From assembly GCF_035254525.1 (NCBI RefSeq), contig NZ_DATFAN010000137.1, forward strand, positions 23,417-87,416: DNA of 64,000 nucleotides, given 5' to 3'. The DNA comes from Ideonella sp. (GTDB taxonomy: Bacteria; Pseudomonadota; Gammaproteobacteria; Burkholderiales; Burkholderiaceae_C). Below, piece after piece: positions 17,019-26,167 of the stretch. Each line of letters begins with the position of its first letter. Position 1 is the stretch's first letter. A program made the position numbers and the translations under genes. The notes beneath the pieces are model-generated. The model was not told where the DNA came from and did not search any database. It saw only the letters and a list, made by a program, of their open reading frames with translations.

Positions 17019-18875
<1,857 letters not shown>

Positions 18876-18928
18876 TTGATTATCTAGGGAAGGGTTAACG
18901 CTAGATTTTACTGACCTAACAGGCGAGT

Positions 18929-18970
18929 GAAGCGGTCCGGCGCGCGAGCGTACGGGCCGCTTCGTTTTTT
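18929..18970 (+). terminator. Rho-independent terminator of the ABC operon
   Basis: GAAGCGGTCCG...CGGGCCGCTTC stem followed by GTTTTTT. Confidence 0.8.
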
Positions 18971-19158
18971 GGCGCCCGGAGCATCGGTCGAGCTATTGAC
19001 TAGACAAGTTGATCTTCGCTGACGAAGTTGCTGCGTAAACACAACAGACTCCCCTCCAAAACGGGCCTAGAGGGTTTCCCGGGAGCGGGGCCAGAAAAGG
19101 GTTCAGTGACAATCCGGACACATGTTTTTGAGGTGAGTACATCCTGGCTTCACAAGAC

Positions 19159-19174
19159 CGGCATGTGACTTGCT
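19159..19174 (+). promoter_or_regulatory. Candidate sigma-54 (-24/-12) promoter of the TonB-dependent receptor
   Basis: CGGCATG-TGAC-TTGCT versus consensus TGGCACG-N4-TTGCW; exact GG-N10-GC spacing; AGGAG RBS at 19211-19215. Confidence 0.55.
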
Positions 19175-19223
19175 TCGAAGCAGGGTCTATCGATCAACCT
19201 TCCCTTACTCAGGAGTGGTACGT

Positions 19224-22142
19224 ATGTTCCAGAAAACAAAGCTCTGCACGAGCTTGCTGCTCGCCTTCAGTGGCGGGATGATCCTGGCGTCCGGCTCGGC
19301 CTCCGCGCAAGAGCGCGTCGAGATCACGGGTTCGCGCATCAAGACCGTTCAGACCGAAGGCACGTCGCCGGTGGTCGTGCTGGGCAAGGAAGCAATTCAG
19401 CTCGAGGGCGTGCGCAACGCCGAGCAACTGCTGAACAACCTGCCGCAGGTCTTCGCCGATCAGGGCGGCAGCGTGTCGAACGGCGCAACGGGTACTGCGA
19501 CCGTCAACCTGCGCAACCTCGGCTCGAACCGGACTCTGGTCCTGGTCAACGGCCGCCGCCTGCCTGGCGGGAGCCCGCGCGATATTTCCACTGACTTGAA
19601 CCAGATTCCGGTTTCGCTGATCAAGCGCGTCGAAATCCTGACCGGTGGTGCCTCGGCCATTTACGGTTCTGACGCCGTGGCGGGTGTGGTGAACTTCATC
19701 CTCGACGACAAGTTCGAGGGCGTTCAGATCGACCTGAACCATGAGTTCTACAACCACCAGCAGCACGCGTCCCAGGGCATCAAGGACGCCAACGCGGCCC
19801 GCCAATTCGCGCTGCCGGGCGACAAGGGCGCCGATGGCAAGGTCACCGACTTCAACTTGACCTTGGGCGGGAACTTCGCCGACGGCAAGGGCAATGCGGT
19901 CCTGTTCTTCGCCCACAAGACGGAAGACGCGTTGCGTGAGGACCAGCGGGACTTCTCGAACTGCGCGCTGCTCGCCGTTGGCGGGCAATGGACGTGCGGC
20001 GGTTCGTCAACTGCCTACCCCGGCCGGTTCATCGACCTTGCCGAAGACGGTGGTGACTGGAACCTGGGCCCCGACGGCGCTCCCCGTCCCTGGGTGGGCT
20101 CGCGCGATCAATACAACTACGCACCGTCCAACTACTTCCAGCGACCGTCTGATCGCTACAGTGTCCAGGCGCTGGCGCACTATGATCTAGCCGATTACGC
20201 GCGTGTCTACGGTGAGTTCTCGTTCCACGACGATCACACCGTGGCTCAAATTGCCCCGAGCGGCATCTTCCTCGGTGGCTTCGTGACCACGGTCGACTAC
20301 GACAACCCACTGTTGTCCGATGCCTGGAAGGCTGCGCTGAATCTGACCGCTTCGGGCGACACCGCTGATCTGTTCATCGGTCGACGCAACGTCGAAGGCG
20401 GCGGTCGGCAGGACGACATTCGCCACAGTTCCTACCGCGGCGTGATCGGCGTCAAGGGCGACATCAATGACGCATGGAGCTATGACGTGTCGGCCCTGGT
20501 CGGCAAGGTGCTCTACCAGGAAACCTACAAGAACGACTTCTCCAACACGCGCCTGCTGCGCGCCTTGGACGTGGTCGACGACGGCGCGGGCAACGCGGTC
20601 TGCCGCTCGGCCCTCGATGGCACCGACCCGAACTGTGTGCCGTACAACATCTGGTCGATCGGCGGCGTGACGCCGCAGGCGCTAGCCTACCTGCAGACGC
20701 CGGGGTTCCAAAAGGGCTTCACGTCGACCGAAGTGATTTCGGCTTCCGTCAACGGTGACCTGACGGGTTATGGTGTGAAGACGCCGTGGGCCAAGTCCGG
20801 TCTCGGCGTGGCGCTCGGTGTCGAGCACCGCACCGAAGAGATGGACCTCAGCACCGACACCGCGTTCACCACCGGCGACCTGGCCGGCCAAGGTGGCCCG
20901 ACGATCGGCGTGGGCGGCGCGTTTGACGTGACCGACGTCTTCACCGAAATGCGCATGCCGCTGATCGAGAAGGCTCCGTTCGCCGAACTGCTGGCGCTCA
21001 ATGCGAGCTACCGCTATTCGGACTACAGCACTGGCAAGAAGACGAGCACCTGGGGTGTGGGCGTCGAATGGGCTCCGATGAACGAGTTCAAGGTTCGTGC
21101 CAGCGCCCAGCGCGCTTCGCGCGCCGCCAACATCATCGAACTGTTCTCGCAGGCGGCTCTGGGTCTTTATGACAACGAGACAGGTGATCCTTGTGCCGGT
21201 GACTTCGACGCCGGGACGTCCACTCCGCCACCAACCGCGACAGCTGAACAGTGCGCCCGCACCGGGGTGTCAGCGGCGCAGTACGGTCACATTCGTGGAA
21301 ACCCGGCCGGTCAGTACAACGCCATCTTTGGTGGCAACGCGAACCTTTCGCCGGAAACCTCGAAGAGCTGGACCGTCGGCTTCGTGGTCAATCCGATCAG
21401 GGACATGAACCTGACCCTGGATTGGTTCCACATCCGTGTCGATGACATCATCGGCAACATCCCGGCCACGAGCATCCTGAACCAGTGTCTGGAGACCGGC
21501 GATTCGTTCTACTGCAACTTGGTGCACCGCAGCAGCCTGACCGGTGATCTGTGGACGGGTACGCCGCCGGATGGTGGCTTCATCGTTGCCACGAACAGCA
21601 ACCTGTCGTTCAAAGAGACCGAAGGCTTCGACGTCGGCGCCGACTACCAGCTCCGGCTGGAAGGTATGGGGCGCATTGACTTCACCTTCAAGGGCACGTT
21701 GCTGAGCAAATTCGAGGCGGAGGACGCCCCGGGATTCGGCTCCTACGACTGCGCTGGCTACTACGGCGGCACCTGCGGAACGCCGGCACCCAAGTGGCGG
21801 CACTCGCTGCGCACGACCTGGCGCTCGCCGTGGAACCTGGACCTGTCTCTGAACTGGCGCTACATCGATTCGGTGAAGAACGAAGGGATGAGTTCGAACC
21901 CGTTGCTGAACGGCGAAGTCGACCCGCTGGTCGCGAAACTGAAGTCCATCAGCTATTTCGACGTGGGTGCTTCGTACAAGGCGACGAAGAACATCACGTT
22001 GTCTGCCGCGATCAACAACATCCTCGACACCGACCCGCCGATCCGCAACAACGGTGCTGGCTTCACGAACGGCAACACCTACCCGGTGGTGTACGACGCC
22101 CTGGGTCGTCGCGTTTCGCTGACGCTGAACGCAAAGTTCTGA
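19224..22142 (+). CDS. Large TonB-dependent outer-membrane receptor with five cysteine pairs
   Basis: Signal peptide, TonB box (ERVEITGS), plug motifs (VNLRNLGSNRTLVLVNGRR, RVEILTGGASAIYGSDAVAGVVNFI), C-terminal Phe (LNAKF). Confidence 0.95.
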   Translation: MFQKTKLCTSLLLAFSGGMILASGSASAQERVEITGSRIKTVQTEGTSPVVVLGKEAIQLEGVRNAEQLLNNLPQVFADQGGSVSNGATGTATVNLRNLGSNRTLVLVNGRRLPGGSPRDISTDLNQIPVSLIKRVEILTGGASAIYGSDAVAGVVNFILDDKFEGVQIDLNHEFYNHQQHASQGIKDANAARQFALPGDKGADGKVTDFNLTLGGNFADGKGNAVLFFAHKTEDALREDQRDFSNCALLAVGGQWTCGGSSTAYPGRFIDLAEDGGDWNLGPDGAPRPWVGSRDQYNYAPSNYFQRPSDRYSVQALAHYDLADYARVYGEFSFHDDHTVAQIAPSGIFLGGFVTTVDYDNPLLSDAWKAALNLTASGDTADLFIGRRNVEGGGRQDDIRHSSYRGVIGVKGDINDAWSYDVSALVGKVLYQETYKNDFSNTRLLRALDVVDDGAGNAVCRSALDGTDPNCVPYNIWSIGGVTPQALAYLQTPGFQKGFTSTEVISASVNGDLTGYGVKTPWAKSGLGVALGVEHRTEEMDLSTDTAFTTGDLAGQGGPTIGVGGAFDVTDVFTEMRMPLIEKAPFAELLALNASYRYSDYSTGKKTSTWGVGVEWAPMNEFKVRASAQRASRAANIIELFSQAALGLYDNETGDPCAGDFDAGTSTPPPTATAEQCARTGVSAAQYGHIRGNPAGQYNAIFGGNANLSPETSKSWTVGFVVNPIRDMNLTLDWFHIRVDDIIGNIPATSILNQCLETGDSFYCNLVHRSSLTGDLWTGTPPDGGFIVATNSNLSFKETEGFDVGADYQLRLEGMGRIDFTFKGTLLSKFEAEDAPGFGSYDCAGYYGGTCGTPAPKWRHSLRTTWRSPWNLDLSLNWRYIDSVKNEGMSSNPLLNGEVDPLVAKLKSISYFDVGASYKATKNITLSAAINNILDTDPPIRNNGAGFTNGNTYPVVYDALGRRVSLTLNAKF

Positions 22143-22170
22143 TCTGAACCGGCGGTTACCGGTCACAAGG

Positions 22171-22204
22171 AAAAGGGGACGCCATGGGCGCCCCCTTTTT
22201 TTTT
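22171..22204. terminator. Bidirectional intrinsic terminator between the receptor and the sulfotransferase-like gene
   Basis: AAAAGGGGACGCC-ATG-GGCGCCCCC-T9, with an A-tract on the left and a T-tract on the right. Confidence 0.85.
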
Positions 22205-22219
22205 GCGGGGCATGGCCCC

Positions 22220-23176
22220 TCAGGCCGTGGGCGACATTCTGTCAATCAGCCGGGCGTATGCCGGCCTGGCGATCTCGTCAATGGCCCGGCGCAGTTCGGG
22301 CGTGGCCTCGGCACGCTTGCGTTCACCGTCCGGAACGAACACGTCGGTTGGCCGACCGACCTGCGACTTCGAGTGGTGTCGAGACGCGATCATCATGGTT
22401 TGCCTGGAAGCATCGGCAACAGGCAAACCAAAGTGAGCTGCCAGGCGGTTCCACACCGCATCCGGCAGCGATTCATAAGGCATCAGTACGCCTCGTGTCG
22501 GATCGAGTCGGCCTGCGGCATCGCAGAACGCCGCGAAGACGCTGGCCAATTCGTGTTCGGCAGTTCGTGGCTCGACGCCGGGAGCGACGAATCCCGAGAA
22601 CAACGCCGCGTACCGGTCGCGCAACCAACCTGGCTGGCGCTGCTGCAGCGATACACAGACTTCGAGCGGATCACGGATGCACAGTGCCCATGGCGTTCGA
22701 GGGAAGGCCTCAGCCACGATGTCGCAGAAGAGCGTGTTCCAGCTCGAGAGCTTGAGCACATAGGGCGACCCTGCGTGCACGGCAAAGTGATGACCGACGG
22801 TGCGTAATGCCGCCACCAATTCATCGCGTGTTCCGGCGTGTGGAGGAACGAGCAGTTCGCTGACCGCCAGGGGCTCGGAGTAGACGACCGACTCTCCCCG
22901 CAGTTTCAGCAACTGGGAAACGAGCGTCGATCCGCAGCGTGCAACGTGGAAGATCACGCCCGCCGGGGCGGTGGAGGAGAGCGGCCGACCCAGTTGCGAC
23001 TTCGGCACATGGATCACAGAGTGCGTGGCTCGCAGGCGGAGTACCGTGTCCTGCAGGAAAGGGTCGCGCAGTTCATCGCGCGCAATATCGACAAGCGCAA
23101 GGTGCAGGCCTGTCGCATCGAGTGCCGATCGTGCGGGCAGGCCCGGCGAGTCGGGGGCAGGCATCAGCGGGGCCAT
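22220..23176 (-). CDS. Sulfotransferase-fold (PAPS-binding) protein of unknown specificity
   Basis: 5'-PSB-like FHVARCGSTLVSQLL, SEP, LKLSSW and 3'-PB-like IRDPLEVCVS; no signal peptide. Confidence 0.7.
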   Translation of the reverse strand: MAPLMPAPDSPGLPARSALDATGLHLALVDIARDELRDPFLQDTVLRLRATHSVIHVPKSQLGRPLSSTAPAGVIFHVARCGSTLVSQLLKLRGESVVYSEPLAVSELLVPPHAGTRDELVAALRTVGHHFAVHAGSPYVLKLSSWNTLFCDIVAEAFPRTPWALCIRDPLEVCVSLQQRQPGWLRDRYAALFSGFVAPGVEPRTAEHELASVFAAFCDAAGRLDPTRGVLMPYESLPDAVWNRLAAHFGLPVADASRQTMMIASRHHSKSQVGRPTDVFVPDGERKRAEATPELRRAIDEIARPAYARLIDRMSPTA

Positions 23177-23179
23177 CGG

Positions 23180-24358
23180 TCAGCGCATCTCGGTTTCGAC
23201 GATGGCGCCAACCTGAAGGAGCTGCTGCAACACGGCTTGCAGCTCGCGTTCGTCGATGAACGGAAAACGCGCAATCAAGTCGTCGCCCGAGAAGAGCTTC
23301 TGTTGCAGCAACCAGCTGACCGCCTGGTAGCAGGCGCCGACGTCGATCCGCGCATGGTCGATCTGCACGCTGAAGCCTTCGTGACGGCGTTCAACCCGGC
23401 CCCTCTTGGTGGTCGAGTAGTACTGCGCCCGCGTTCGTGCCGGTAACTCGAACGTGGCAGATGACGTCGCGAGCGATCGTTGATGGTTGCGGACCTCGAC
23501 GGCAAACGAGGGCGAGGTCATCAAGCGTTCGAGTTGTTGCGCCAATCGAGCAAGGTGCCTGCCGAGTTCGGCGGCGTTACTCGCATCCGGCAGGTATGCC
23601 CTGAATTCGCTGTCCAGGGCAGCGTCTGCTTCAAGCAACTTGAAGAGCGACAGCCCGGTAGCGGGTTTGACCCAGAACGTCACGTGCAGCGATGCATCGG
23701 CGCCGGTGACTGCGTCGTGATACTGCCCCCGCGGCAGGTACAACAAGTCGCCGGGCTTCATCAGAACTTCCTGCAGGACCCTGCCTCGGCTGGCGACGAG
23801 CCACTTCTCCGCCTCGTCGCCAGGCGGCAGGCTCGCCATCGGGTTGTCCGCACGCGCCTCGTAGATGCGCCAGAGCTTTTCGCCCTCGGTTTGGAGGGCG
23901 AACACGTCGTGCAAGTCGTAGTGCGTATTGAACGCCTGCACGCCCTGAAACGAGCAGTACACGTTCGCACCGGCACTGGCTGCGAACTCCCGCTGCAGCA
24001 TTTGCACCAGATGAGCCGCATCAGGCGACACGCGCTGGATCTGATTGGCCACGAGGCTGGCACCAAACCCAAGCAGCGCCTTGACCTTGCGCGGATTGGC
24101 GGGTGCCTTCTCGCCGGGCGCGATCTCGCCGACATCACAGTAGTTGTCGCGCAGGGCGAGCCTGTTTTGATAGAAGACCTTCAGCGTGTCTTCATTCCAA
24201 AAGGCGGTGAGTTCGAGTATGTCGTTGAGGCGTCGCCAAGTCAGTGGATTGTCGAGGGTGCGCCCGCGAGCATCGAGGTGCAGCGGCTTCTTGCCGTAAT
24301 AGTGGCTCTTGAACTCGACTGGGTCGAACGGCGCGAGAAACTCGGCGAAATTAGGCAT
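23180..24358 (-). CDS. JmjC/cupin-4 2-oxoglutarate Fe(II) oxygenase (YcfD/ROX-like)
   Basis: F...YYGKKPLHL N-terminus, HYD facial-triad motif, DVFALQTEGEKLWRIY, MKPGDLLYLPRGQYH distal His. Confidence 0.88.
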   Translation of the reverse strand: MPNFAEFLAPFDPVEFKSHYYGKKPLHLDARGRTLDNPLTWRRLNDILELTAFWNEDTLKVFYQNRLALRDNYCDVGEIAPGEKAPANPRKVKALLGFGASLVANQIQRVSPDAAHLVQMLQREFAASAGANVYCSFQGVQAFNTHYDLHDVFALQTEGEKLWRIYEARADNPMASLPPGDEAEKWLVASRGRVLQEVLMKPGDLLYLPRGQYHDAVTGADASLHVTFWVKPATGLSLFKLLEADAALDSEFRAYLPDASNAAELGRHLARLAQQLERLMTSPSFAVEVRNHQRSLATSSATFELPARTRAQYYSTTKRGRVERRHEGFSVQIDHARIDVGACYQAVSWLLQQKLFSGDDLIARFPFIDERELQAVLQQLLQVGAIVETEMR

Positions 24359-24463
24359 ACGACTCAGGCATCATAGCGTGTCGGCCTGCCGCAGCTGACC
24401 TGTGCACGGCTCGTCACGCGGGCAGTTGGCGGTCATTGTCCAATCGCCATCGAAGTCTTCGCA

Positions 24464-25372
24464 ATGACACCACTTCCCTCCACCGATTTGCCGGCCACCG
24501 ACCAGCAGGCTTGGTCGCGATACTGGGCGGCGGTTGCACCCGAAGCTGCTGGCTGCCTGCCGGGTCTGCCCGGGTCGATTGCAGGGCTTTTCGAATCGCG
24601 CTGGAGCGCGTACTTTCGCAGCCTGCCGCGTGGGGCGCTGGTATTGGACCTGGGCACCGGCGGCGGCGCAGTGCCGCGATTGGCAGCAAGCCTGGATCTG
24701 GGGTTGAAGCTCGTGGGCGTCGATTACGCCGATGTCGTGCCGGTCAACGACGACCCAGGAATCGAGTACAGGGGGCGGGTGGACATGAGGGCGCTGCCCT
24801 TTGTCGATGGCCACTTCGATGCAGTGACGAGCCAGTTCTCGATCGAATACGTTGGCATGGAGGCCGTGGACGAACTGCTGCGGGTTCTGTCAGATCGGGG
24901 CTCCTTCATGATCATCGCCCACCACGCGGACAGTGTGGTGCTGGACCAGAACAGGAAGCGCCTGTTGGCATTGGAGGGCCTGCTCGCCGAGGGGGGGATA
25001 GTGCAGTCCGCGCGGATTGCAGTCGATGCGGGCCGAGAAAGAGACCAAGCGACGCGCCACGACCTGGCCGGCCAATTGAAGGCGCTCAGGCTCCAACACG
25101 AGGGTCAGGGGGTCGTCGAGGAGATTTCAGGCTTGGTGGCGCGCATGATGCTGGAGCCTGATGCGCGCGCTGGTCTGCAGTGGCTGCATTCGCAGGCCCG
25201 AATGGAACAGGTTCGCCTTCGTGCGCTCTCGGCAGCCGCGTTGGACGAATCCTCGGTTGCCGCCTTGAGGGCCAGGCTCGCGCGACCGGGTCGGGCCGTC
25301 AGCTGCAATGTGATGTCGGCGCCGGAACTGGGGATGCCGATCGCCTGGCATCTCCAATCGCCGGCCTGGTGA
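24464..25372 (+). CDS. Class I SAM-dependent methyltransferase with helical C-terminal extension
   Basis: Motif I VLDLGTGGG, GVD, LPFVDGHFDAVTSQFSIEY. Confidence 0.85.
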   Translation: MTPLPSTDLPATDQQAWSRYWAAVAPEAAGCLPGLPGSIAGLFESRWSAYFRSLPRGALVLDLGTGGGAVPRLAASLDLGLKLVGVDYADVVPVNDDPGIEYRGRVDMRALPFVDGHFDAVTSQFSIEYVGMEAVDELLRVLSDRGSFMIIAHHADSVVLDQNRKRLLALEGLLAEGGIVQSARIAVDAGRERDQATRHDLAGQLKALRLQHEGQGVVEEISGLVARMMLEPDARAGLQWLHSQARMEQVRLRALSAAALDESSVAALRARLARPGRAVSCNVMSAPELGMPIAWHLQSPAW

Positions 25373-25408
25373 GCATCCATGCAGGGTCCGGTCCAACCGA
25401 TCCGCTGA

Positions 25409-26167
25409 TCACTTCGGCGCCAACCGGATCGCCCCATCCAGCCGGATCACCTCGCCATTGAGCATGTCGTTGGTGATGATCTGGTGCACCAGCTTGGCGT
25501 AGTCCTCTGGCTTGCCGAGGCGGCTGGGGAAGGGGACGCTGGCGGCCAGCGCGTTCTGCACTTCCTTGGGCATCGAGAAGAGCATCGGCGTGCCGAAGAT
25601 GCCCGGGGCGATGGTCATGTTGCGGATGCCGTTGCGGGCGAGGTCGCGGGCGATGGGCAGCGTCATGCCGACCACGCCGCCCTTGCTCGCCGAATAGGCG
25701 GCCTGGCCGATCTGGCCGTCGTAGGCGGCGACGCTGGCGGTGCTGATCATCACGCCGCGCTCGCCGGTGGATTCCGGCTCGTTCTTGCACATGGCCTCGG
25801 CGGCCAGGCGGATCATGTTGAAGCTGCCGATCAGGTTTACCGTGACCACCTTGGTGAAGGTGTTCAGCGGGTGGGCGCCGTCCTTGCCGACGGTCTTCAC
25901 CGCCGGGGCGATGCCGGCACAGTTGACCAGGCCCATCAGCTTGCCCAGGCCCGTCGCGGCAGCGACGACGGCGCGGCCGTCGGCTTCCTGGCTCACGTCG
26001 CAGCGCACGAACACGCCGCCGAGTTCCTTCGCCAGCGCTTCGCCCTTGTCAGCCTGAAGGTCGGCGATGACGACCTTGCCGCCGTTGGCCGCCAGCATGC
26101 GCGCCGTGCCTTCGCCCAGGCCCGATGCCCCGCCGGTGACGATGAAGACCTTGCCGGAGATGTCCAT
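25409..26167 (-). CDS. 3-hydroxyacyl-CoA dehydrogenase, HSD10-type SDR (IvdG-like)
   Basis: [35 protein letters not shown] and [13 protein letters not shown] motifs. Confidence 0.9.

Follow-up and report, generated by a model that had tools for sequence, protein, structure and literature searches.

Pairs of a TonB-dependent receptor (TBDR) and a cytoplasmic oxygenase, such as Fiu-YbiX, PiuA-PiuC, and CciT-CciO, are widespread, tied to siderophore-antibiotic uptake, and mechanistically unexplained. CciT has been shown genetically to depend strictly on the cytoplasmic dioxygenase CciO, with three models left open (Hernandez-Ortiz et al., 2025, PMC12004947). On the computational side, neighborhoods of JOR/JmjC genes with TBDR genes, and of beta-hydroxylase genes with sulfotransferase or methyltransferase genes, were described in silico by Iyer, Abhiman, de Souza, and Aravind (2010, PMC2938197), who also reported fusions of 2-oxoglutarate (2OG) oxygenases to sulfotransferases and proposed hydroxylation followed by sulfation or methylation. 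The locus considered here is in a 64,000-nt stretch of Ideonella sp. DNA, referred to as the window (contig NZ_DATFAN010000137.1 of assembly GCF_035254525.1, positions 23,417 to 87,416), and consists of genes for a TBDR with cysteine-bearing loops, a JmjC oxygenase, a sulfotransferase-like protein, and a methyltransferase.

In a preliminary description this locus was put forward as an undescribed system, which is too strong a word given the in silico neighborhoods and the CciT-CciO genetics just mentioned. It may be read, tentatively and with a probability somewhat short of even, as a widespread cassette in a reduced form particular to this lineage. In the cassette, a Cys-looped TBDR subfamily is combined with cytoplasmic enzymes of protein-modifying type; these would act on a substrate made by the cell, and the receptor would depend on them. 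So read, the locus would be a richer branch of the TBDR-oxygenase theme, with enzymes that resemble protein hydroxylases and tyrosine sulfotransferases.

The JmjC-sulfotransferase pair and its partners across genomes

Neighborhoods of JmjC homologs were surveyed by open reading frame (ORF) and BLAST analysis in one genome per species. This gave 80 loci, 77 of which were counted and 67 of which had enough flanking sequence for adjacency. Most are in metagenome-assembled genomes of Steroidobacteraceae; the others are in Ideonella, Aquabacterium, and the alphaproteobacterial Hyphomonadaceae, Micropepsaceae, and Terricaulis. A sulfotransferase gene, co-directional or divergent, is no more than 400 bp from the JmjC gene in 61 of the 67 species-level loci, in Beta-, Gamma-, and Alphaproteobacteria alike, and homologs of both are numerous in metagenomes, on shared contigs. 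A receptor of the same subfamily as that in the window is within 10 kb of JmjC in 16 of 77 loci, in several arrangements. Co-occurrence of homologs in other genomes had been set beforehand as a check on the four-gene grouping, and it was found in both respects. Other recurrent neighbors are an AspH-family hydroxylase (34/77), a PiuC-like oxygenase (17/77), a sulfotransferase with tetratricopeptide repeats (TPR-sulfotransferase; 15/77), and a divergent sulfotransferase-like paralog (15/77).

A neighborhood of receptor, 2OG/JmjC/AspH oxygenase, and sulfotransferase genes is thus recurrent across unrelated genomes. Measured by this recurrence, linkage of the JmjC and sulfotransferase genes is very strong, that of the receptor moderate, and that of the methyltransferase weak but real. 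All four families are found together, along with a TPR-AspH gene, in Ideonella sp. YS5 and on one metagenome contig; there the methyltransferase relative is downstream of the TBDR gene and faces the order sulfotransferase-JmjC-TPR-AspH-SDR (short-chain dehydrogenase/reductase). Compact systems are available in two forms, a four-gene version in the window and a five-gene version in cultured Ideonella strains. Ideonella lacteola DXS29W and Ideonella sp. YS5 both have the set TBDR, sulfotransferase, JmjC, and TPR-AspH, to which the methyltransferase is added in YS5.

Co-occurrence is nested as well as local. In a sample of 101 Steroidobacteraceae genomes, JmjC is in nine. A close c4b-type AspH is present in 16 genomes of the sample, which include all nine, and the remaining 85 are without JmjC (hypergeometric 5e-9, which is overstated, relatives not being independent). 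Among 121 genomes of the window family, it is in two, both of them among the 12 with TPR-AspH. The Cys-looped receptor subfamily is in all five JmjC genomes checked, plus the window genome and its relatives. The window genome also has a c4b-type AspH (54% identity), on contig C125, and a TPR-sulfotransferase, at unlinked sites.

The pair can also stand apart. Where it is isolated, between glnE and groESL, all five of five genomes carry a cluster of receptor, AspH, PiuC-like, and TPR-sulfotransferase genes elsewhere, often on the same contig at a distance of tens of kilobases. The closest JmjC homolog (80% identity) belongs to a JmjC-sulfotransferase-AspH-TPR-AspH operon converging on a TBDR gene, with flanks that differ from those in the window; this other chromosomal context suggests that the cassette may move as a unit.

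In Povalibacter, other Steroidobacteraceae, and some Alphaproteobacteria, the pair is surrounded by a larger cluster. Besides the receptor, this cluster encodes several more oxygenases (TPR-AspH in two or three paralogous copies, one PiuC-like protein, and another of 2OG type), further sulfotransferases (TPR-sulfotransferases and a diverged paralog of the small one), a protein in which AspH and sulfotransferase domains are fused, and a secreted protein of about 165 amino acids. Occurrence of the fusion protein in the same clusters supports joint action of the enzymes, by the Rosetta stone argument.

Two protein families of these clusters may be noted in their own right. One (L039:6080-7135 and homologs; about 350 aa) has no Pfam match, a shared N-terminal region, and a P-loop-like HTGHVGSTL, and by its sequence appears to be the divergent paralog of the small sulfotransferase. 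The other (L039:14392-14889 and homologs; about 165-230 aa) is the secreted protein, with a signal peptide, a Cys-x-Cys N-terminal motif, and a Pro/Ala linker. It recurs in some large clusters, is absent from the window genome, and is a candidate periplasmic partner or substrate.

Enzymes, receptor, and chromosomal site

The JmjC protein matches JmjC_2 (PF08007) at 89.3 bits against a cut-off of 22 (E 1.9e-25), and among solved structures NO66 and MINA53 come closest to it in sequence (E ~1e-17). Its Fe(II) triad (H146, D148, H214) is invariant in 16 homologs, placing it among JmjC_2 proteins of the HxD...H type. Identity is 57-80% across proteobacterial classes, and 57% between Beta- and Gammaproteobacteria. 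A second, weak JmjC-like match is found elsewhere in the window genome (contig C146), possibly a YcfD-type gene, so that the JmjC protein of this locus looks accessory; its sporadic distribution may be said to argue against a core ribosomal role.

For the sulfotransferase-like protein there is no NCBIfam match, and no PDB match by single sequence or profile. Its sulfotransferase fold is confirmed at the level of a predicted structure: the AlphaFold model (pLDDT 92.8) has tick and human TPST1/2 as its top PDB matches in Foldseek (E 7e-7 to 2e-5, TM-scores 0.5-0.55), followed in the list by other sulfotransferases, with probability 1.0. Invariant residues include R80-C-G-S-T84, a P-loop like that of the 5'-phosphosulfate-binding site (5'-PSB); E101; K142; and R168-D-P...S176, which is like the 3'-phosphate-binding site (3'-PB). 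An adenosine 5'-phosphosulfate (APS)-kinase domain is encoded in a 648-aa frame on contig C165 of the window genome, so the genome can make the sulfate donor 3'-phosphoadenosine 5'-phosphosulfate (PAPS).

The methyltransferase matches Methyltransf_11 (PF08241) at 37.1 bits against a cut-off of 21.2, with a DLGTGGG motif whose D62-L-G-T-G-G66 loop, for binding S-adenosylmethionine (SAM), is invariant, as expected of a class I enzyme. It carries a family-specific helical insert (residues ~158-272). Its model (pLDDT 90.7) has as PDB neighbors generic O-, N-, or C-methyltransferases of small molecules or of ribosomally synthesized and post-translationally modified peptides (RiPPs), at TM-scores of 0.47 or less; since class I matches are generic only, deduction of specificity from structure was abandoned. 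It belongs to a rare family, of which a large database yielded 21 proteins. Relatives of at least 43% identity adjoin TBDR genes in three further settings, and weaker homologs are also in TBDR-AspH loci of the window-family sample. At one locus (L128:2376-8879), the gene for a methyltransferase of 43% identity is transcribed away from that for a TBDR of 1003 aa. JmjC is absent there, and a phage tail-collar (PF07484) protein is encoded two genes away; tail-collar proteins were proposed by Iyer et al. (PMC2938197) as substrates of hydroxylase/sulfotransferase operons. More distant homologs (36-38%; L129, L130) are near rhodanese, thioredoxin, and DsbD genes, with ArsR/ArsP-type genes in L130. 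To judge by these neighbors, that branch is probably unrelated in function, and a different role, related to sulfur or arsenic, is suggested.

The receptor has the plug (PF07715, 81 bits) and barrel (PF00593, 110.7 bits) domains of a TBDR, both above threshold; from the start preferred in Table 1, inspection gives a signal peptide ending ASA|QE and a terminal F. No NCBIfam equivalog matches it, and in the PDB the plug alone matches, to BtuB, CirA, or FepA. Members of its subfamily are 40-46% identical to it along their full length when from other classes and 75-86% identical when from Ideonella-type relatives, whereas the next-best TBDR in the window genome is 28% identical; with mutual identities of 40-86% vs. 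at most 28% for the genome's own paralogs, the cluster receptors may be considered one subfamily. Ten Cys are at least 95% conserved in 20 members and presumably form five pairs. The EGF-type consensus for AspH was tried on the Cys loops and rejected: the C-x8-C ring size fits, but position 3 has no conserved Asp or Asn.

The noncoding DNA upstream of the receptor gene can be aligned nearly base for base with that of five Ideonella-type relatives (L002, L007, L008, L009, L085). These ~230 nt are near-invariant across genera, and more conserved than the receptor protein itself. They include a sigma-54-like -24/-12 element, CGGCATGTGACTTGCTT, at 19159-19175, whose GG-N10-GC is retained in all five relatives, and, ~160 bp upstream of it, a conserved block beginning ATTGACTAGACAAG. 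No Fur box was found here or in the 105-bp JmjC/methyltransferase intergenic region (best match 10/19, chance level), and no sigma-70 consensus in the latter. The conservation points to what may be tight, non-Fur regulation. Rfam gave no gathering-level match when five cluster loci were scanned, nor any credible one for the window. Before Steroidobacteraceae receptor genes there is a different conserved motif of ~27 nt, GGTTGTATGCTCGACACCACGCTTGGG, with a shared ribosome-binding site (RBS) context (L028:2350-2400, L029, L035, L039, L041); it has no Rfam match, and may be a promoter or regulator site.

By the ORF list and translations, the window island is four genes between a Yej/Opp-type peptide importer operon of the ATP-binding cassette (ABC) type (solute-binding protein, two permeases, fused ATPase), which ends at 18875, and an SDR gene (Table 1). 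JmjC is upstream of the sulfotransferase start, at a gap of 3 nt, and 105 bp separate the divergent JmjC and methyltransferase starts. The terminator is a GC-rich hairpin, preceded by an A-run and followed by a T-run; folding of the 77-nt region gave -37.3 and -43.5 kcal/mol on the two strands (z -2.7 and -4.6). The ORF list and hairpin folding agree with the layout given in the preliminary description, gaps and shared terminator included, and its statements that the receptor is Cys-looped and the enzymes are without signal peptides also hold: no N-terminal hydrophobic signal was seen in the translations of JmjC, sulfotransferase, or methyltransferase. G+C content is 0.61-0.64 across 19000-24500 vs. 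0.65-0.72 in the flanks, and the codon-position contrast (GC3-GC2) is weaker than in flanking genes for the sulfotransferase (0.19) and methyltransferase (0.27), which is consistent with horizontal acquisition of the island.

Table 1. Features of the receptor-enzyme locus and its downstream flank, in window coordinates.
Feature	Position	Strand	Remarks
Upstream noncoding region of receptor gene	18990..19223	+	sigma-54-like element, conserved block, RBS
TBDR ORF	19170-22142	+	likely true start ATG 19224
TonB-dependent receptor	19224..22142	+	~972 aa; signal peptide, plug, large barrel, ten conserved Cys, C-terminal Phe
Bidirectional intrinsic terminator	22170..22206	both	common to receptor gene and JmjC-sulfotransferase operon
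Sulfotransferase-like gene	22220-23176	-	318 aa; TPST-like by predicted structure, cytoplasmic, probably PAPS-dependent
JmjC gene	23180-24358	-	392 aa; ROX-type (NO66/MINA53/YcfD-like) Fe(II)/2OG oxygenase; first gene of two-gene operon
JmjC/methyltransferase divergent intergenic region	24359..24463	.	105 bp; presumably both promoters
Methyltransferase	24464-25372	+	302 aa; class I SAM
SDR	25409-26167	-	downstream flank

Gene-order maps of relatives' loci, made with a GC3-based gene caller for high-GC DNA, show how variable this site is. The order in Ideonella relatives is ABC - TBDR - sulfotransferase - JmjC - TPR-AspH - SDR - adk - kdsB - lpxK - exbBD, with the position of TPR-AspH occupied in the window by the methyltransferase. 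A same-genus genome has at this site a different, 856-aa TBDR and a different AspH, without JmjC, sulfotransferase, or methyltransferase, and an Aquabacterium-like genome has TBDR-TPR-AspH here and the JmjC-sulfotransferase pair on another contig. Because its content differs among relatives, the ABC-to-SDR site can be described as a variable receptor-plus-enzyme island between conserved flanks. All ten non-window TPR-AspH genes in the family sample are a few genes from a TBDR gene (three or fewer in the loci read), and four of the ten are accompanied by a dedicated exbB-exbD-exbD. These four Burkholderiales loci (L119:9963-15667, L118:5059-10537, L120:5326-10684, L124:9388-16657) add proteins of 216 and 417-453 aa without Pfam matches; from gene content, the TBDR-TPR-AspH-exbB-exbD-exbD set looks like a complete private TonB-type energizing system.

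Possible substrates and mechanism

If the four genes act together, we infer the following order of events. The JmjC protein, as an Fe(II)/2OG enzyme of ROX type, would hydroxylate a peptide or protein substrate on one of its side chains; the co-translated TPST-like sulfotransferase would then O-sulfate this substrate with PAPS, the acceptor being the hydroxyl just made or a neighboring Tyr; and the methyltransferase, standing where relatives have TPR-AspH, could provide a further tailoring step. The substrate would be a product of the cell whose gene lies elsewhere than in the locus, and its modified form would be needed for receptor function, as a cell-made ligand or partner, in parallel with the need of CciT for CciO. 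That the substrate may be a protein or peptide is indicated by the NO66/MINA53-like JmjC, the TPST-like fold, and the TPR fusions in sister enzymes.

Several results weigh against this reading of the locus as a reduced receptor-dependent cassette. The sulfotransferase scores 22.3 bits with Sulfotransfer_3 (PF13469), under the cut-off of 27, and so is not placed in that family by its profile; the spacing of its motifs resembles that of the catalytic residues of TPST2, but no alignment was obtained, and the resemblance is a lead only. In Steroidobacteraceae the JmjC-sulfotransferase pair is mostly unlinked to the receptor. The methyltransferase is in 2 of 77 JmjC loci, and the TPR-AspH usual beside the receptor is absent at the window locus: of the earlier proposal that the four genes form one system, the recurrent neighborhood stands, but they are not a fixed unit. 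The receptor gene is without a Fur box, unlike cciT, so the parallel with CciT may not extend to iron. Finally, more than 80 loci yielded neither a substrate gene nor a ligase or an exporter.

This last result agrees with what had been noted for the window, where no precursor, ligase, or exporter is found at the locus or in relatives. A look for small conserved ORFs near homologous loci, which had also been proposed, gave none: when all ORFs of 25-110 aa outside called genes in 24 cluster loci were clustered, there was no peptide family, only shadow ORFs of the conserved noncoding stretch upstream of the receptor. A RiPP or metallophore set (precursor, core maturation enzyme, and exporter) is likewise absent from the window map and from relatives. 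Lasso-peptide clusters tailored by sulfotransferase or AspH are listed in PMC10040529; a link to these was dropped, the window genome having no lasso B protein.

Other substrates are conceivable. One candidate is the receptor itself; it, or some other envelope protein that is exported, could be given hydroxyl, sulfate, and methyl groups in the cytoplasm before Sec export, which might serve to form ligand or metal sites or to change surface recognition. This would need neither precursor nor exporter; the receptor is the only recurrent non-enzyme partner, save for the secreted ~165-aa protein in some clusters, and its subfamily travels with the enzymes; these resemble animal protein-modifying enzymes; and the different TBDR and different AspH in the same-genus genome are at the same site, as if exchanged together. 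It is nonetheless unlikely. To our knowledge, no outer-membrane protein of bacteria has been seen to be hydroxylated or sulfated in the cytoplasm, the conserved Cys loops are without the AspH EGF-type consensus, and the pair is usually unlinked from the receptor. CciT, moreover, is made even when CciO is absent, though the study did not look at its modification state (PMC12004947). That JmjC/AspH and TPST-like enzymes decorate a TBDR or other envelope protein before export as a counterpart of modification in the animal secretory pathway seems distinctly improbable; if they do, hydroxylated and sulfated receptor residues would serve in ligand capture, and both the absence of precursor, synthetase, and exporter and the CciT-type need for a cytoplasmic oxygenase would be explained.

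It is also rather doubtful that the substrate of JmjC and sulfotransferase is a housekeeping protein of the cytoplasm (a ribosomal protein or a translation factor, for example), as for other ROX enzymes, and that adjacency to the receptor is due to insertion into a variable island, with no function in common. JmjC is conserved between Beta- and Gammaproteobacteria to the degree of housekeeping proteins, its nearest structures are ribosomal oxygenases, many genomes carry the pair alone between glnE and groESL, and the ABC-to-SDR site is hypervariable; but the pair is sporadic (2/121 and 9/101 genomes), its distribution is strictly nested in that of the receptor/AspH cluster, and several independent arrangements place it inside this cluster. 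Processing or detoxification of cargo, a peptide or xenosiderophore, imported via the receptor and the neighboring Yej/Opp-type ABC importer is very unlikely, even though the peptide ABC operon adjoins in the window and relatives and a role in transforming imported substrates has been proposed for CciO and PiuC (PMC12004947). The operon is a conserved flank in this lineage only, absent from distant clusters; PAPS and SAM would be a costly and unusual expense for an imported nutrient; and the TPR fusions and slow JmjC evolution favor a fixed macromolecular substrate. Decoration of the receptor, a precursor encoded elsewhere, and modification of imported cargo, the three models first offered for the locus, cannot be told apart by sequence data.

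Comparison with described systems

In methanobactin operons (PMC3621798), too, a TBDR (MbnT) is encoded together with a sulfotransferase (MbnS), the product being a peptide metallophore that is modified and then re-imported; the window is without an MbnA precursor, MbnB/C, or exporter, and its oxygenase and methyltransferase are of different types. Bacterial RaxST acts on RaxX. The window sulfotransferase shares with TPST1/2 and RaxST the 5'-PSB- and 3'-PB-like motifs and an Arg in the P-loop, and tyrosylprotein sulfotransferases are its best structural matches; it differs in its low identity (~16%), extra N-terminal beta-hairpin region, cytoplasmic location, and sub-threshold Pfam score, and the window has no raxX-like precursor or raxA/raxB exporter. 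The JmjC protein has the domain and HxD...H triad of YcfD/RoxA, NO66, and MINA53, which include its closest PDB sequences, but unlike these it is accessory and sporadic, in an operon with a sulfotransferase, and nested in receptor/AspH genomes.

The neighborhoods of Iyer et al. (2010, PMC2938197) are similar in bringing together several unrelated dioxygenases, sulfotransferases and/or methyltransferases, and a TonB-type receptor, with a sporadic distribution like that expected from horizontal transfer. Their TBDR-linked JmjC proteins are of the FIH1/yW-hydroxylase clade, however, and occur with tryptophan halogenases and SapC, while the window JmjC is of the MINA/NO66 clade, with no halogenase, SapC, nonribosomal peptide synthetase, or collagen-like protein, and no tail-collar protein in the window.

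With CciT-CciO, PiuA-PiuC, and Fiu-YbiX (PMC12004947) the locus has in common a TBDR gene and the gene of a cytoplasmic oxygenase (Fe(II)/2OG type) that are conserved together, the oxygenase being genetically required for receptor function in those systems, and larger relatives of the window cluster hold a PiuC-like oxygenase. The window oxygenase is nevertheless a ROX-type JmjC rather than a PKHD/PiuC-type enzyme, and is joined by a sulfotransferase and a methyltransferase; the receptor is a ~970-aa Cys-looped protein, not Fiu/PiuA-like, and has no Fur box, so that the two do not form a pair of the CciT-CciO kind. The classical arrangement is present separately in the same genome, as a TBDR - PKHD/PiuC-type hydroxylase - PepSY_TM set on contig C50 (L089:3613-7576). 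What appears to be new in comparison with all of these is a JmjC-sulfotransferase pair that behaves as a mobile two-gene tailoring unit; its occurrence, in the sampled genomes, only where a specific AspH occurs, with the receptor subfamily in every such genome checked; and the exchange, even within a genus, of the receptor-plus-enzyme content of one chromosomal site.

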